27,035 nucleotides of DNA. Source: a virus. Its lineage: Duplodnaviria; Heunggongvirae; Uroviricota; Caudoviricetes. The stretch lies in IMG/VR virus record IMGVR_UViG_2617270961_000004; one strand, given 5' to 3'. The translations under genes and the position numbers were made by a program. Positions 1 to 27,035 of the stretch are shown piece by piece. Position 1 is the stretch's first letter; each line of letters starts with the position of its first letter. The notes beneath the pieces are model-generated. The model worked only from the letters and a program-made list of their open reading frames with translations, did not search any database and had not been told where the DNA came from.

Positions 1-585
1 CTATTCGATAATGGGTCCTGTTGGCCATTCAATATCCGGTGCAGTTGATGTATCAACACGGTTCAGCAATACCCGATACTTTTTCCATGCTTCCAGCAAC
101 GAGATTTCTTCCTCCGTTGCAATTTCCAGATCTGCAGCATCCTGAAGCGGCGCAATATGCTCACTGGCCACCTGCATCAGGCTGTTTTTTGTTTCTTCCG
201 CCTCCCGGATCCGGAACAGTTTTTCTGCTTCCGTATCCTTCACCCAGGCTGTGCCGTTCCACTTCTGATATTCCCCTCCCGGCGATAACCAGGTAACATT
301 TTCCGGTAACGGACCGAGTTCAGAAATAAATAACGCGTCGCCGGAAGCCACGTCATAAACCGTTTTACCCCGATGATTTTCAACGAGATGCCACGATGCC
401 TCATCACTGTTGAAAACAGCCACGAAGCCTGCCGGAATATCTGGCGGTGCAATATCGATACTGTTTGCTGGCAGACCTGTATGAGGCGGAATATATGCGT
501 CACCTTCACCAATAAATTCATTAGTTCCGGCCAGCAGATTATAAATTTTTATGGTCCGTGGTTGTTCACTCATTCTGAATGCCAT
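1..585 (-). CDS. tfa: tail fiber assembly protein Tfa (194 aa)
   Basis: Complete ORF, ATG at 583-585 and stop at 1-3. Length and sequence ([24 protein letters not shown]...) match lambda Tfa as recalled. GAGG Shine-Dalgarno upstream. Start overlaps the stf stop by 1 nt. Confidence 0.9.
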
Positions 586-4095: not shown

Positions 4096-7000
4096 TCAGC
4101 TGATACTGATACCTGCTGTGGATTTCTTCATCACCACAACCAGCAGATCGCTGATACTGGTTGTTGGTGTCCAGTTATTCGCTCCTGATGAAGATACGGT
4201 GAATGTCAGTGTCAGCGTCCCCTGTCCGGCAGGCATATCTATAACTGAGGAAAATACGCCCTGAGCATCCGTCGTGGACTGATTAAAAATCTCCTGACCA
4301 TTGCGGGTCACTCTTAACCGGCAGGTTGAATACCAGTATGACTGTTGGTTATTACTGTTGAAATTCTCATGCTTACCACCGCGGAATAACACTGGCGGTA
4401 TCATGACCTGCCGGTCAAATTTCTGATCATCACTGATTCTTACCGTGATGGTGCCACTGGCATAACTGTTCGTGCGGGGGAAAGACTTGCTGACCGTTTT
4501 GACAATATCGCCTTCAATCTGATTGGCTGACAGTTTCCCCTTAATCTGACAGTTTTCATTAATCGTGACATTGTTGAGCGTCCCTGAATTTGCATTCACA
4601 TTACCGCTGATATCCGCATTTTTAGCGGTCAGCTTTCCGTCTGGTGTCAGGGAAAATGCCGGCGGATTTCCACCGCTGGTAATGGTGGGAGCCGTCAGGC
4701 GTTTCAGGAACACGTCGTTCATGAATATCTGATCGCCCTGACCAACAAACATCGGTTTTGTGTTGCCATTCGCAGGATTAACCATCGCAATCCTGTCCGC
4801 CGCCAGCAGCACCTGACTCTGCATGCCGTCAGGGGTATTCTCAATACCGGCACCAATACCCGCGATATAAAGGCGTCCGTCCTGCATCTGCTGCAGCTTC
4901 ACAGCCCACATGCTGTTCAGGTTATTATTTGTATCAACCTGAACCTTCTGTATCTGCTGAATTGCAGCACTCTGGTCTTCCAGTTTCTTATTGACGGTCT
5001 GCGTGATTTCATTGCTGACATCCGTAATGGACGTCCTGATTTCAGCCAGGTCAGGCGCAAGCTGACCGTTATCAATCTGCGTCCACAGCTCCTGAGCCAG
5101 ATGGGTTTTCCCTATCTCGCCTTTGAAAAAATCCAGATAACCGGATGCATCATCACTCGGCTGACCAACAGCCTCCACGAATGCCGATTTGCCAACGGTG
5201 TTCACACTGCGGATATAAAAGTAATAATCATGGCCCGGTTTGATATTGATACTGGCGGCTATCCAGTACAGCGCCGTGCCAAGATAGCGTGCTGTGGTTT
5301 CAACCTGCCTGATATCCGCAATCCGCTTTTCCGAGAACCAGAACTCAAACTGTACCGTCGGATCATAAACCGCAAGATGCGGCGTGGCGGTTATCTGAAA
5401 ATAGCCCGGCGTCAGCTCAATCCGCGACGGCGCTGCCGGTGCGGCAATCCGGAACGATACCGACGCCGGATCGCCCTGCTGCCCCCACGCATTTACTGCC
5501 CGGACTGTCAGCCTGTAGTTCCCCAGCGCCAGTTGTGTGAAGCGGTAAGTGGTTTCCGTCGTCCGGGCCGTGCTGACCAGCCGCTCACTGCCGTCATCCG
5601 CTGTTACGGTCAGACGGAGCAGGAAGCTCACGCCCTTCACCACCTTCGGTGTGTCCCATCGCGCCAGCACCTGATATTCCCCGCTGTCTGCAGTGACTTC
5701 GGCGGTCAGGTGCTGCACTGCTGGCGGCGTGACACCATTCACCGTGCCGCTCTGGTCACCGTCAAAGTGCGCCCCGTTATCCACGATGGCTTCTTTTTCC
5801 GGTACATGCTGCATGGCGGTGATGGCATACGTGCCGTCGTCGTTCTCACGGATACTCACGCAGCGGAACAGGCGCTGGCGCAGCGTCGGCAGCTTCAGCC
5901 CCCACACGCTGTATTCAGCAACGCCGTCAGGAACACGGCTCACTTTCACCTTCACGCCGTCGGTGACGGACTGAACCTCCACGCTGACCGGATTGCCACT
6001 TCCGTCAACCAGGCTTATCAGCGTGGTACCGGAGGATGGCAGCGTGATTTCACGGTCGAGCGTCAGCGTCCGGGTCTGGCTGTTTACCGCCAGCACGCGC
6101 CCGCCGATGCTGATACCGGCATAGTCATCATCACAGATTTCAATGACATCGCCCGGCACATGGCGAAGCCCTTCTGCGCCCACGCTGAAGTCCACGGTCT
6201 GCGTTTCCAGCAGTTCTGTTTTAATCAGCCACAGCCCGGCGCGATGTGCCTGCCCCCGGCTGGTACAGCCAAAGGCATCCATCTTCGTGACATTACGACC
6301 GTAACGGGCAATGGCCTGCGTGTCCTCCACAAGCTCTGTCGCCGTCTCCCAGCCGTTATTCGGGTCAATCCAGTTCACCTCAACGGCATTATGGCGGTCC
6401 TTCAGGGCGCTGAAGCTGTAGCGGAACGGCGCGCCATCATCCGGCATCACCACATTACTGCGGTTATAGGTCCACACCTTATCTGATGGTCGGTCCTGCA
6501 CGAACGTCAGCGTCTGCCCGTTCCATACCGGCATACAGCGCATCGCCGAGCAGAAATCACTGAGCACATCCCACGCCTTGCGCTGTGTGGTCAGGTACGC
6601 ATTACAGGTGATGCGCGGCTCCGTGCCGCCAAAGCCGTCCGGCACTGACTGGTCGCAGTACTGGCCGATGACATACAGCGCCCATTTATCCACATCCGCC
6701 GCACCAAGACGTTTCCCCATGCCGTAGCGCGGATGGGTCAGCATATCCCACAGACACCAGGCCATGTTGTTGCTGTATGCCGGTTTAAACGTTCCGTCCC
6801 AGATACCGCTGTATTGCCGCGTCTGCGGGTTATAGTTCGACGGCACCTGCAGAATGCGCCCGCGCAGATGATAATTACGGCTCACCTGCTGGCTGCCGAA
6901 CTGCTCCGAATCCACCTGCACGCCGACCAGTGCCGTGTTCGGGTAGCCCTGTTTCACATCGATGATTTCGGTGTATGACGACCAGAGCGTTTTGTTCTGC

Positions 7001-23275: not shown

Positions 23276-23509
23276 ATGTCAACGAAGAACAGAACCCGCA
23301 GAACAACAACCCGCAACATCCGCTTTCCTAACCCAATGATTGAACAAATTAACATCGCTCTTGATCAAAAAGGGTCCGGGAATTTCTCAGCCTGGGTCAT
23401 TGAAGCCTGCCGCCGGAGACTGTGCTCAGAAAAAAGAGTTTCTCCTGAAGCAAACAAAGAAAAGAGTGACATTACTGAATTGCTCAGAAAACAGATCAGA
23501 CCAGATTGA
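23276..23509 (+). CDS. small basic putative ribbon-helix-helix (Arc/CopG-like) DNA-binding protein, 77 aa
   Basis: AT-rich ORF on the strand opposite the phage late genes. Basic N-terminus (MSTKNRTRRTTTRN), then a beta-strand-like IRFPNPMIEQINIAL and helix SAWVIEACRRRL resembling the RHH fold. Weak SD; family assignment is inference. Confidence 0.5.
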   Translation: MSTKNRTRRTTTRNIRFPNPMIEQINIALDQKGSGNFSAWVIEACRRRLCSEKRVSPEANKEKSDITELLRKQIRPD

Positions 23510-23565
23510 AGCAATTTAGATAATCGTGCAGACTACACCCCTCATATCACATGGAAGGTACTACA

Positions 23566-23976
23566 ATGGCTCAGGTTGCCATTTTTAAACAAATATTCGA
23601 TAAAGTGCGAAATAATTTAAACTATCACTGGTTTTATTCTGAACTAAAACGTCACAATGTCTCACATTACATTTACTATTTAGCCACAGAGAATATTCAT
23701 CTTGTTCTTGAAAACGATAATACGGTTTTAATAAAAGGACAGGGTAAGGTTGTAAATGTAAGATTTTCAAAAAATAAATGCCTTATAGAAGCCACCTTAA
23801 AGGGATTCAAATCAGGAGAGTTATCATTTTACGAATACAGGAAAAATCTTGCTACAGCAGGGGTTTTCAGATGGATTACAAATATCCACGAAAACAAAAG
23901 GTATTACTATACCTTTGATAATTCATTACTCTTTACTGAGAACATTCAGAACACTACACAAATATTTCCGCACTAA
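23566..23976 (+). CDS. hypothetical protein, 136 aa; tentatively DUF1398 / YbcV-like prophage protein
   Basis: AT-rich ORF with a GGAAGG SD 7 nt upstream of the ATG at 23566; the track ORF starts 5 codons earlier at an ATG with no SD. No signal peptide or transmembrane segment. The length equals that recalled for the E. coli DLP12 YbcV protein, which lies next to lysis genes in that prophage; the identity is unverified. Confidence 0.55.
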
Positions 23977-24263
23977 ATCATAACGTCCGGTTTCTTCCGT
24001 GCCAGAACCGGACTCGCTGGCATGATGAAATATGTGTACCCGGTAACCCCGGTGTGCATCGTTTTTGATTATTCCCACACACTCGCGCAGAAGGAGTTCC
24101 CCGTCGGGCTACGGTCTCTGTTAATACGGGAATACGGCGACGATACAGCGCATGATGTGTCAGGCTTGAATACCTTTATCCTTTAAAAGGGATATCAGTT
24201 AAGTTATCCCGTGTAGGGTATAAGCCATTATCAAACTCTGTAGGAAGTGGCTTTTGTAATGGC

Positions 24264-24290
24264 AATAAAAAGCCCCGCGAATGCGAGGCT
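24264..24290 (-). terminator. rho-independent terminator candidate downstream of Rz
   Basis: Hairpin agccccgc-gaat-gcgaggct (7 bp, one mismatch) followed on the minus strand by TTTTATT; positioned ~170 nt after the Rz stop. Confidence 0.5.
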
Positions 24291-24463
24291 AAATCCTGGT
24301 ATTTGTAATGACTGGCTCTTATCTCAACGCAGCCCCTTACCGCGCGCAAAATGCTCAATATCAAGCATCAGCAATGAGATGTTTAATCTGGATTCACTCC
24401 AGAAGTGAGCACCACCCTGTCTACAGAGCCAGATGTGAAGGATGATGAGTAAAATTATCGCTA

Positions 24464-24931
24464 TCATCGAAGGCATTGCGTCCTGATGTATTCCTGAAGC
24501 GTTCTCAGTGCTGTTTGGTCGCGGATAATTCCGTCCCGGATACCGAGAACGTTTCGTCCAGCAACTGGAGAGAGTTCGACGGTGGCATCATTGCCCATGC
24601 CGGAGGCGCTGGAGGTTTCGACTGAGGATGGCACAGGGCATTTTCCTTTGACGAGCACCCGACCACCATTATCAAGCTTGCGCCGAAGAGCATCATTTTC
24701 AGCTTTCGCATCAGCTAACTCCTTCGTGTATTTATCATCGAGTGCATCAGCATCACGCTGGCGCTGCTGCATGTCAGTAATGGTGGCGTTCGCCTTCTCC
24801 AGTTCACTGGCCTTGTTATCGCGCTGTTCTTTGTAGGCGATTGCATTATCACGGTAATGATTAACAGCCCATGACAGGCAGACGATGATGCAGATAACCA
24901 GAGCGGAGATAATCGCGGTTACCCTGCTCAT
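24464..24931 (-). CDS. Rz: spanin inner-membrane subunit Rz (i-spanin), 155 aa
   Basis: [38 protein letters not shown]...: N-terminal transmembrane helix then a coiled-coil periplasmic domain. ATG at 24929-24931 overlaps the R stop as ATGA; the track ORF starts 4 codons upstream at a GTG. Confidence 0.85.
24505..24711 (-). CDS. Rz1: spanin outer-membrane lipoprotein subunit Rz1 (o-spanin), 68 aa, embedded in Rz in the +1 frame
   Basis: [21 protein letters not shown]...: signal peptide plus lipobox (VVGC), Pro-rich mature part ([13 protein letters not shown]); AAGGAG SD 7 nt upstream. Fully nested inside Rz as in lambda. Confidence 0.75.
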
Positions 24932-25425
24932 TGTTGCCCCCACAAACAGACCTCACGCTCAATCTCACGACGAGTCATCAGGCCTTTCCATTGCTTACCG
25001 CCAGCGTATGCCCAGCGACGTAGCTGGTCACATGCGCCCTTGATATCGCCCTGGTTTATTTTGCGAAGAAGAGTAGATGTTCTGAAATTGCCTGCGCCCA
25101 CGTTATAGACGAACGAGTAAAGAGCGCCGCGCGTTGTTTCCGGTATATCGACTTTGATGTACGGGTTAATTTGTCTGGCTACCGTGGCAAGGTCTTTATT
25201 CAGGAGGGCTTTGCATTCTGCTTCGGTATACGTTTTACCGGGAATGATGTCTTTTCCTGTATGCCCGTGACATACAGTCCATACGCCAACGATATCTTTG
25301 TATGGTATGTAGCTGACACCTTCCAGACCATCGTTACCACTTGGGCCAGTGATTAACACTGATGCTATAGCAATTGCTCCGCCACCAATAGCAGCAGCAA
25401 CGGCTTTTCGTAATGATGGAGGCAT
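24928..25425 (-). CDS. R: SAR endolysin (phage-21 R-type lysozyme, T4-lysozyme-like GH24), 165 aa
   Basis: N-terminal signal-anchor-release segment ([20 protein letters not shown]) followed by the lysozyme catalytic region ([23 protein letters not shown]). Length and sequence match phage 21 R as recalled; this is not the lambda R transglycosylase. Confidence 0.9.
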
Positions 25426-25640
25426 TATTCACCTCTCGCAGCCTTGCGCTTATCTTCTTTAATCTTGAAATAAAGGTTTGTCAGGTACGTCAGCAGGCCA
25501 AATACCAAGCTACCCAGCACACCTATTGCTGCCCACTGTGAGGGCGTGACTTTATCGAGCAGCTGTAAAAACCAGTAGCCAGCACTGCCTGCGGAGGTGC
25601 CGTAGGCAATGCCCGTTGTTAACTTATCCATGGATTTCAT
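25425..25640 (-). CDS. S: pinholin S21-type (class II holin), 71 aa, dual-start motif
   Basis: [28 protein letters not shown]...[23 protein letters not shown]...: two transmembrane domains, Met1-Lys-Ser-Met4 dual start (antiholin/holin), charged C-terminus. GGAGGTGAGG SD. Stop overlaps the R start by 1 nt. Confidence 0.9.
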
Positions 25641-25827: not shown

Positions 25828-26568
25828 TTACATCATGTCTTTTTCTAAAAAAAATCTTGATGAATATTGATGGGGAGGAACACCAAAATACCTTCTGAAA
25901 ACACTTACAAAATATGACGTGTTTTCATAACCGCATATCTCAGCAACTTTTCCAACAGAATATAAATTGTAGCTTAATAACCTTTCCGCCATCACCATTC
26001 GCTCTTCAAGAATTAACTTACTAAATGATAAGCCTTCGTGCTTTAATTTTCTTTTTAACAGACTTTCACTCAGATACAGTCTTGAAGATATATCACAAAG
26101 TCTCCATGCTGCAGATATATCCGTGTGAACAATAGCCTTAACTTTACTTCCTAAACTATTAAGACATCCAAATAAAAAACTTTGCACTATTTTCTCTGAA
26201 GATAAGATAGCAAGACATGCAAGTGATATTTGATTTCTAACAAAATCCACAGTTCTGCCATCACAATTCAAGCATGCAATCAAGTTCTTTAACAATGAAA
26301 AATCTTCACATTCCACCATCACGTATGCCGGATAAAACCTTCTTACAGAAAAAGGTGAGAGTGTGTTGCTTTTAAAGAAATCATTAACTGTTTTCTCTTC
26401 AACATCTACGATCATTACATGATCTATATTTGATGAAAAAAAATCTTTTAAATTGTAATCAATGAGAACAGCACTTCCTTTTTTAAACAAAATATCTTCT
26501 TTACCAATTCGGACATCAAACGAGTTCAACACCAAAATGATAGAACATATGTATGGCATATTATCCAC
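25828..26568 (-). CDS. AraC/XylS-family transcriptional regulator (GadX/YdeO/AppY-like subfamily), 246 aa
   Basis: C-terminal AraC-type HTH (LYLSESLLKRKLKHEGLSFSKLILEERM...VGKVAEICGYENTSYFVSVFRRYFGVPPHQY). Strongly AT-rich compared with the flanking phage genes. GGTGG SD. Subfamily assignment is from recalled similarity to E. coli YdeO. Confidence 0.85.
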   Translation of the reverse strand: MDNMPYICSIILVLNSFDVRIGKEDILFKKGSAVLIDYNLKDFFSSNIDHVMIVDVEEKTVNDFFKSNTLSPFSVRRFYPAYVMVECEDFSLLKNLIACLNCDGRTVDFVRNQISLACLAILSSEKIVQSFLFGCLNSLGSKVKAIVHTDISAAWRLCDISSRLYLSESLLKRKLKHEGLSFSKLILEERMVMAERLLSYNLYSVGKVAEICGYENTSYFVSVFRRYFGVPPHQYSSRFFLEKDMM

Positions 26569-26780: not shown

Positions 26781-27035
26781 GGTAATGACTCCAACTTATT
26801 GATAGTGTTTTATGTTCAGATAATGCCCGATGACTTTGTCATGCAGCTCCACCGATTTTGAGAACGACAGCGACTTCCGTCCCAGCCGTGCCAGGTGCTG
26901 CCTCAGATTCAGGTTATGCCGCTCAATTCGCTGCGTATATCGCTTGCTGATTACGTGCAGCTTTCCCTTCAGGCGGGATTCATACAGCGGCCAGCCATCC
27001 GTCATCCATATCACCACGTCAAAGGGTGACAGCAG
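26781..27035 (-). mobile_element. IS1 insertion sequence, right-end 255 bp (truncated by window edge)
   Basis: Terminal inverted repeat ggtaatgactccaacttattgatagtg beginning at 26781, followed by sequence matching the insB 3' end of IS1 as recalled. The rest of the element lies outside the window. Confidence 0.9.
26796..27035 (-). CDS. insB: IS1 transposase InsB, C-terminal part (partial; 5' end outside window)
   Basis: Translation ...[76 protein letters not shown] matches the InsB C-terminus; the reading frame stays open to the window end. Confidence 0.85.

Follow-up and report, generated by a model that had tools for sequence, protein, structure and literature searches.

The DNA considered here is a stretch of 27,035 nucleotides (nt) from a virus of the class Caudoviricetes (IMG/VR record IMGVR_UViG_2617270961_000004), referred to below as the window, which belongs to a lambda-like Escherichia coli prophage with its late operon on the minus strand. 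Between the Rz i-spanin gene and a convergent DUF1398 gene lies an interval of about 0.5 kb (23977-24463), which an earlier reading made without database searches (the sequence-only reading) described as holding no convincing gene at the place where lambda carries bor. Comparison with related phages and prophages indicates that this interval is neither a wreck nor empty of features, and that it represents the two conserved arms of an accessory-gene bay with no cargo between them. On balance, such a bay seems to be kept by lambdoid phages between the lysis cassette and cos, the copy in the window being empty and of mosaic origin. This interpretation is carried by the mosaic joints of the interval, a small open reading frame (ORF) family with a fixed place after the spanin gene, a terminator hairpin, the conservation and base pairing of RNA elements, and the diversity of cargo genes in relatives, all of which were observed directly.

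Mosaic Structure of the Interval

The assignment of the interval to the bor slot of lambda, proposed in the sequence-only reading, is borne out by alignment. In blastn comparisons, homology to lambda and DLP12 covers the 5' half of Rz down to 24684, ends there, and resumes at 24152, from which point window 24152-23493 aligns to lambda 46868-47527 with 82% identity (82-83% for DLP12), comprising the DUF1398 gene (lambdap78) and 174 nt downstream of it. In its 3' half, Rz is an HK620/Sf6-type allele. Homology of the HK620/Sf6/CUS-3 type extends over approximately 24265-24463 and that of mEp460 and Ayreon over 24048-24463; P22-like loci share 96% identity over 24931-24175, with the block 24175-24260 lying in those phages just upstream of a DUF2560 gene. 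The joint between the HK620/Sf6/mEp460-type arm and the lambda-type flank falls at 24152-24175. The linker (24155-24223, minus strand), recognized from the boundaries of the blastn blocks, contains a small hairpin at 24190-24211, GGGATA-N10-TATCCC followed by U4, with a fold z score of -2.4.

Many complete genomes of E. coli contain the same 1.1 kb at an identity of at least 99.5%, and 718 genomes have a match over 80% or more of its length. The gene content of the interval is ordinary, being a mosaic junction of which each piece is present in hundreds to thousands of genomes.

The Cargo Slot and the bor Question

In about 100 related loci, alignments break at 24262-24267, right after the terminator T1 described below. 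The genes that follow T1 in these relatives are all on the late strand and include Rha-family genes (203-229 amino acids, aa), a 95-aa gene labelled "late gene regulator" in Ayreon, Sf6 gp66/Phage_gp49_66, Tad2-like and T5orf172/MUG113 genes; in other relatives, the DUF2560 and small terminase genes of P22-like phages stand directly after T1. Antitermination by the Q protein of lambda is established, and because late genes run past T1 in relatives, polymerase antiterminated in this manner would have to read through it. The sequence-only reading had also considered the interval as a long 3' untranslated region (UTR) of the lysis operon. This description comes close, with two amendments: the first 150 nt hold a small ORF coupled to Rz, and, as the late genes of relatives continue downstream of the terminator, the interval lies within the late transcript and does not form its end.

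In the E. coli prophages L105-L107, a 159-aa Tad2-like gene (PF11195, Thoeris anti-defence; 1435-1914) is located about 80 nt past the small ORF and immediately after the terminator, and the T5orf172/MUG113 and Phage_gp49_66 genes of loci L101 and L103 occupy the same slot. The post-T1 site looks like an accessory or anti-defence hot spot.

A decayed cargo gene was another possibility raised by the sequence-only reading, according to which the interval would be the pseudogenized remnant of bor or of some other cargo. The slot is indeed syntenic with the lambda bor locus, lying between Rz and the DUF1398/DUF3950 genes near cos, and element E, a conserved segment located beyond the promoter of bor in lambda, is retained. 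Against this stand the searches for the gene itself, since a tblastn search of the whole window with lambda Bor, a lipoprotein of about 97 aa, gave a best E value of 4.5 with none of the weak matches inside the interval, and a sensitive blastn search for the bor region matched only the flank already common to the window and lambda. In an alignment of the window, lambda, DLP12, 434, and Shiga toxin (Stx) phages, homology is lost at 24152-24154, before the bor-proximal promoter region (about 115 nt in lambda, with TGTTTAGGGTTTGTTTA) is reached. Apart from the small ORF, no ORF in the gap matches Pfam or PHROGs, and every block is intact and identical in hundreds of genomes, unlike wreckage. The homologous prophages compared carry other intact genes or none, and no gene was found among them of which the interval could be the ruin. 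Decay of bor or another cargo gene is thus an extremely improbable origin. The other gap ORFs (54 aa, plus strand; 62 aa, minus; 53 aa, plus; 45 aa, plus; 50 aa, minus, at 23926-24078) were rejected as candidate genes for want of any Pfam or PHROGs match.

In lambda at about 46760-46870 (locus L085, 1760-1870), between element E and the start codon of bor, TGTTTAGGGTTTGTTTA forms a direct repeat, TGTTTA-N5-TGTTTA, which presumably fits the PhoP-box consensus; the region is also present in DLP12 and Stx phages.

The Small ORF after Rz

The sequence-only reading was correct that the gap contains no credible ORF of 60 aa or more, the sole one being a 62-aa ORF with a TTG start (24176-24364, minus strand) that lacks a family match. 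Its conclusion that no convincing gene is present does not stand, as a 50-aa minus-strand ORF (24476-24324), most of which lies inside the interval, matches the phrog_11822 profile from end to end (residues 1-50 on profile positions 1-50; E 1.8e-36), corresponds to Sf6 gene 65, and is called by the Prokaryotic Genome Annotation Pipeline (PGAP) as product WP_001139678.1. It had been missed because it falls below the 60-aa cut.

The ORF comprises 50 codons from its first ATG, which has AGGA 4 nt ahead of it. Its fourth codon, the ATG at 24467-24465, overlaps the Rz stop codon TGA (24466-24464) as ATGA, with 47 codons remaining from that point. In the window, Sf6, Ayreon, Kati, and Klebsiella phages, the ORF starts at, over, or no more than about 10 nt from the stop codon of the last spanin gene. 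This placement also holds where the upstream gene is DUF2514 or a separate 60-aa gene in place of Rz (PF03245), the three genes being unrelated. The start of the ORF lies inside Rz, and no promoter-like site on the minus strand was detected between 24476 and 24600.

Matches to phrog_11822 comprise 65 protein clusters at 62-100% identity, and an exhaustive profile search recovered 25 representatives, with relatives in Klebsiella, Kluyvera, Citrobacter, and uncultured phages, the Klebsiella phage copies showing approximately 70% nucleotide identity. The module is present in 1954 of 5426 E. coli genomes. A scan of one genome per species using exact-word patterns, which have limited reach, returned only E. 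coli and E. albertii, together with bins of metagenome-assembled genomes that look contaminated, and comparison with NCBIfam, PADLOC, and PDB sequences gave no match.

The reading frame is open in all 25 distinct copies, and no other frame stays open; in the DNA of six diverged lineages it remains open over 45 codons each, without insertions or deletions (indels). The predicted product has a hydrophobic helix at the N-terminus and ARxKGLR at the C-terminus, with IWLCR and one Trp invariant in between, and its 14 invariant residues comprise part of the hydrophobic N-terminus, IWLCR, the Trp, one Ser, and part of ARxKGLR. Eight of these 14 residues are encoded by several synonymous codons (Arg by AGA, CGA, CGG, and CGT), with Arg14 using four codons across the six diverged lineages. 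In codons 2-9, variation is distributed 7:2:8 by codon position and T occupies the second position in 83% of cases, a pattern that reads as the signature of a hydrophobic (transmembrane-type) helix, and AlphaFold run on a shallow alignment predicts a single long helix with a mean confidence score (pLDDT) of 68, too weak a model to warrant a fold search. Taken together with the contrary observations given below, translation of the small ORF seems likely. It is read here as being under bipartite constraint, in which the first 14 codons would be subject to selection at the protein level and the remainder largely at the RNA level, with a conserved C-terminal motif.

Elsewhere, the family also follows lambda-type holin/lysozyme cassettes, so it is not bound to one lysis type.

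Terminator T1 and the Second Hairpin

The minus-strand terminator-like hairpin noticed in the sequence-only reading at 24290-24264, designated T1, proved to be real. It has the structure AGCCTCGC-ATTC-GCGGGGCT followed by T5, that is, an 8-bp stem with six G-C pairs and a loop of 4 nt, with U5 directly after it on the transcribed strand. T1 is one of two hits in a terminator scan, in which shuffled sequences average 1.8; its fold has an energy of -15.2 kcal/mol (z -2.8), its stem variants retain pairing, and the depositors of the phage Ayreon and epsilon34 records annotated it as a terminator. By its composition, T1 would be classed as a canonical intrinsic terminator.

Upstream of T1, the stop codon of the small ORF and the next 13 nt (TGAGATAAGAGCC) are nearly invariant, and they are followed by a post-ORF hairpin framed by CATTAC...GATAATG. 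Copies of the Sf6, Klebsiella, and window types differ in the stem and keep its pairing, with 97.6% of alignment cells paired in a hand-made alignment versus 32-53% when the partners are slid, and three of the nine inner pairs changed on both sides. The window type consists of two hairpin units, the first being T1 with its U tract and the second an additional hairpin, in contrast to the Sf6 type, which is a single unit without a U tract.

The second hairpin survives in the window as a remnant (24224-24263, minus strand), recognized from repeats (direct repeat D1 and inverted repeat I3) and from the comparison of copies, with the arrangement CATTACAAA-AGCCACTT-CCTACA-GAGT^TT-GATAATGG. The CATTACAAA at 24253-24261 has a second copy across T1, at 24302-24310. 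A 4-nt deletion (GGCT on the late strand) between 24235 and 24236 has removed most of the 3' arm of unit 2, leaving GAGT^TT in place of GAGTGGCTTT. Among approximately 105 copies (53 distinct sequences), the deletion occurs in the window alone, and the other copies with a second hairpin have an intact GAGTGGCTTTGATAATGG. Over 23500-24600, the most similar complete genomes of E. coli exceed the window by 4 nt (1105 versus 1101 nt).

Element E and the Inverted Repeat

The cos-proximal arm contains element E, a non-coding segment of 107 nt (24048-24154, minus strand) whose core corresponds to lambda 46866-46971. With a covariance model derived from 31 variants, a single copy was located in each of eight contexts, namely the window, lambda, DLP12, 434, two Stx phages, and the loci L104 and L238, and its orientation is invariably that of the late operon. 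The element is found in 933W, in 432 phage records, and in 3084 of the 5426 complete E. coli genomes, with up to six copies per genome, nearly always unannotated. Between Rz and the core, lambda, 434, and Stx phages have bor and some 115 nt of DNA near its promoter, so that element E follows bor and its promoter; in L238 the core directly follows the stop codon of a late-strand Rha gene. Element E thus marks the side of this cargo bay that faces cos. The neighbor on the far side of the block formed by element E and the inverted repeat differs in 434 and Stx phages, where it is DUF3950 or the small-terminase side.

In the viral contig L123, two copies of the element E core (5136-5156 and 6086-6106) are located 950 nt apart and differ only at the cos-distal edge, which possibly represents a bay with cargo between duplicated arms.

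The consensus fold of element E is a long imperfect hairpin of 27 pairs, with an energy of -23.4 on the late strand versus -10.7 on the other. Across the variants, 97.7% of the cells are paired, compared with 24-68% for slid partners, and 15 G-U pair types occur versus three A-C. Indels of 1, 2, and 9 nt and the absence of codon periodicity in all six frames of 25 gap-free variants identify the element as non-coding. The 54-codon ORF noted in the sequence-only reading does exist at 24022-24186 on the plus strand, as a chance frame over element E; it was rejected as a gene, having no family match or periodicity, both starting and ending outside the conserved element, and being broken by 1-nt indels in lambda and DLP12. 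Late-strand ORFs of 67-81 aa called over the element in Stx phages, one of them labelled "Rz-like spanin", were likewise rejected, being frame-shifted in the window and lambda. These calls, for example at 1295-1540 in the Stx1 phage L115 (81 aa) and 1371-1574 in L117 (67 aa), are, judging from the alignments, probably spurious annotations.

The inverted repeat after the DUF1398 stop codon, also reported in the sequence-only reading, was confirmed at 23985-24013 and measures 8 bp, with the arms GTCCGGTT and AACCGGAC at 23985-23992 and 24006-24013 and a 13-nt loop. Its core CCGGT...ACCGG and the adjacent TTTCTTCC are kept in lambda, DLP12, 434, and Stx phages, and on account of this shared conservation it forms part of the same block as element E, with a variable spacer between. 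In relatives the stem is reduced to 5-6 bp; there is no U tract, and the fold z score of -1.2 is not unusual.

A check of the hairpins for covariance, suggested alongside the sequence-only reading, revealed base-pair-preserving variation on the late strand in three stretches: the small ORF, the post-ORF hairpin, and element E. No conserved promoter was found upstream of these stretches, because the upstream neighbor differs from phage to phage. A small regulatory RNA locus, the remaining suggestion of the sequence-only reading, is on these findings a conceivable use of the interval. The case for structure draws only on comparative data, because the inverted repeat and the window's own copy of element E fold like shuffled sequences.

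RNA-family and literature searches were also carried out. With Rfam 15, no family reached its gathering score in 23900-24600, the best sub-threshold matches being AbsR28 (18 bits) and STnc560 (16.8 bits), both to the terminator only, and permissive thresholds returned only terminator look-alikes. The Pas small RNA (sRNA) genes of pathogenic E. coli prophages adjoin Q and the holin/lysozyme operon, at another locus (bioRxiv 10.64898/2026.05.13.724894), and the supplements of Tree et al. contain no mention of ECs0822 (PMC4104026). The interval does not correspond to a Pas or AgvB/AsxR locus, given that no Rfam family reaches threshold and the published loci differ. A search of the literature on the sequence downstream of Rz and on borD/ybcV sRNAs yielded nothing usable.

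Proposed Mechanism and Alternative Explanations

A course of events can be suggested from the anatomy of the interval and the known biology of lambdoid phages. Recombination probably brought together two pieces, a right flank of lambda type with the DUF1398 gene, inverted repeat, and element E, and a lysis-cassette end of the HK620/Sf6/mEp460 type with the 3' half of Rz, the small ORF, T1, and the second hairpin; bor and its proximal promoter would have been lost in this event. During lytic growth, the whole interval would be transcribed on the minus strand within the Q-antiterminated late mRNA, and the small ORF would be translated by coupling to Rz, yielding a 47-aa single-pass membrane peptide that might act with or alongside the lysis proteins. 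T1 would stop polymerase lacking the Q modification, so that the convergent, prophage-expressed DUF1398 and YlcI genes are not run over. The hairpins, including those of the ORF and element E, may shape the processing or stability of the late mRNA, and at the DNA level the hairpins and flanks could serve as conserved arms for cargo exchange by homologous recombination. The more specific proposal that element E, and possibly the unit of ORF plus T1, are functional RNA structures of the lambdoid late transcript, acting as a determinant of processing or stability or as a source of late-phase sRNA, is tentative.

Several observations weigh against this account. Among E. coli copies of the small ORF, the ratio of nonsynonymous to synonymous substitution (dN/dS) is 0.8-1.7 and polymorphic sites are distributed 14:8:11 by codon position; pairwise dN/dS is 0.4-0.9 among diverged relatives, codons 15-38 vary 18:18:15, and variation is even over codon positions outside the first 14 codons. 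At the divergence of the Klebsiella copies, the frame would stay open by chance with a probability of about 0.25 per lineage, and one of these copies, in phage ST13-OXA48phi12.5 (L089, 1536-1680), has an in-frame TAG stop. The ancestral post-ORF hairpin is without a U tract in many relatives, and because of this the term terminator applies to the T1 type only. In element E, double-sided changes are confined to three of the 27 pairs, the alignments examined are those from which the structure was predicted, diversity is low (identity of at least 79%), the window's copy folds no better than shuffled sequences (z +0.3), and that of lambda folds well on either strand. Because double changes are few and the structures come from the same alignments, a DNA-level inverted repeat or a hitch-hiking recombination arm has to be considered. 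In L089, the neighboring Rz region is disrupted as well, and the cassette end appears to be decaying.

The small ORF might not be a protein gene, in which event the approximately 215 nt from the Rz stop to T1 would constitute a structured non-coding RNA, either a 3'-UTR-type tail or an sRNA cut from the late lysis transcript and ending at T1, with the open frame arising as a side effect of the constraint on structure. The last two-thirds of the ORF do fold into four conserved hairpins with 32 pairs (RNAalifold, on an ungapped alignment not fitted to structure), in which 93.5% of cells are paired versus 37-43% with slid partners and eight pairs have changed on both sides; the covariation score of 0.249 was reached by none of 500 shuffles, and the consensus energy is -29.4 on the late strand versus -9.7 on the other. 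Pairing also explains the coupled exchanges of M/A with H/R (ATGCTC/GAGCAT versus GCGCTC/GAGCGC), a 12-nt invariant loop, AUCUGGCUCUGU, could serve as a seed, and the dN/dS near 1 and the 14:8:11 distribution among E. coli copies are in keeping with a non-coding role. RNA structure does not, however, explain the period-3 pattern of codons 2-9, and the four codons used for Arg14, the coupling of the start to the stop of three unrelated upstream genes, the equal length without indels in six lineages, and the lack of an Rfam match speak against this alternative as well. A purely non-coding segment is accordingly considered unlikely, and protein and RNA constraints on the same sequence are compatible and can coexist.

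For element E, the inverted repeat, the second hairpin, and the linker, a comparable question arises, namely whether they are "boundary sequences" devoid of RNA function, junction DNA kept by recombination or by recent spread together with their neighbors. The mosaic joints coincide exactly with block edges (24262-24267, 24152-24175, and 23985), the copies are 80-100% identical, which leaves little power to detect covariation, and boundary sequences are annotated in the Sf6 record; the folding of the window's and lambda's copies of element E, the latter equally on both strands, points the same way. On the other side, all three structured segments keep their pairs far above slid controls, and G-U outnumber A-C pair types 40 to 11 on the late strand, the strand on which the structures were predicted or, for the hairpin alignment, hand-drawn. 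When the strands were folded separately for element E and the ORF segment, the consensus was two- to three-fold stronger on the late strand, and element E holds one orientation to the late operon in eight contexts. Junction DNA without RNA function is regarded as a possible but doubtful explanation of these parts.

Relation to Known Systems

The closest counterparts of the interval are the Rz-bor-lambdap78 region of lambda and the rzpD-borD-ybcV region of DLP12, which show the same order of lysis cassette, slot, convergent DUF1398 gene, and cos; lambda and the window share 82% identity over the DUF1398 gene, the inverted repeat, and element E. In lambda the slot is filled by bor on the opposite strand and by its proximal promoter region with the PhoP-box-like repeat, whereas the window has neither and carries in their stead a small ORF on the late strand and a terminator, both of a different phage lineage. 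The ORF that follows Rz in Sf6 (gene 65), HK620, CUS-3, and mEp460 is 92-100% identical to that of the window, with the same overlap of the Rz stop and a hairpin after it. Sf6 differs in having a single ancestral hairpin without a U tract followed by gene 66, compared with T1, a damaged second hairpin, and no cargo in the window.

Morons and boundary sequences of lambdoid phages are known as hot spots at which unrelated accessory genes alternate between short conserved flanks, with a terminator at the edge of the insert. The slot of the window resembles such sites in its swapped cargo, conserved flanks, and edge terminator, and in the boundary-sequence features of the Sf6 record; it differs from a classical moron in that no cargo fills the bay and the small ORF, coupled to Rz, lacks a separate promoter. 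Structured elements of phage transcripts and sRNAs derived from 3' UTRs are likewise well known, for instance the lambda sib hairpin cleaved by RNase III and the tR'/6S RNA. The interval is like them in presenting long hairpins in a polycistronic phage transcript and a terminator-ended tail after the last lysis gene, and unlike them in that its elements have no sequence or Rfam relationship to them and are known here from sequence alone.

These results bear on annotation as well as on phage biology. A 60-aa cut misses a small ORF that closes the lysis cassette in roughly one-third of the complete genomes of E. coli and also in prophages of Klebsiella, Kluyvera, and Citrobacter. The post-T1 cargo site, at which a Tad2-like (anti-Thoeris) gene is among the inserts, is a useful place to seek new accessory or anti-defence genes. 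Should the RNA interpretation be true, element E would be an RNA structure, absent from Rfam and from annotation, that lambda, 434, and Stx phages of the 933W type have in common with over half of the complete genomes of E. coli. Lambda itself carries this 107-nt conserved element with RNA-type pairing variation, unannotated, and any function would be easy to test there. The small ORF at the cassette end and the unannotated element in lambda are two parts worth experiment.

Genomic Context of the Window

Upstream of the interval, the lysis cassette (24928-25640, minus strand) looks from its sequence to be of the phage-21 type. It comprises late genes for a pinholin-type holin (25640-25425, minus strand), which is a 71-aa pinholin-like S, and for an endolysin of the signal-arrest-release (SAR) type (25425-24928, minus strand), the latter having an SAR-like N-terminal hydrophobic segment rich in Gly and Ala. 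These are followed by the Rz i-spanin gene (24464-24943, minus strand; PF03245, E 6.8e-29; phrog_13), with Rz1 embedded at 24505-24711. On the other side lie the DUF1398 (YbcV/lambdap78-like) gene (23551-23976, plus strand; PF07166, E 3.3e-43), for which PGAP places the start at 23566 to give 136 aa, and a DUF3950/YlcI-like gene (23276-23509, plus strand); beyond these two genes are cos and then Nu1 and A on the minus strand.

An AraC-family regulator gene (25828-26568, minus strand) is located upstream of the holin gene, in the Q-to-S slot, and is likely a moron; it matches YdeO best (127 bits, far under the cutoff of 348 bits), with GadX and HilD also related. The adjoining 73-aa ORF (26796-27017, minus strand) resembles a fragment of an IS1 transposase, as judged without a family search, and IS1 occurs nearby in related genomes. 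The sole Rfam family in the window is IS009, with a full-length match at 44-242 (minus strand; 220 bits against a gathering score of 117) inside the tail-fibre end.

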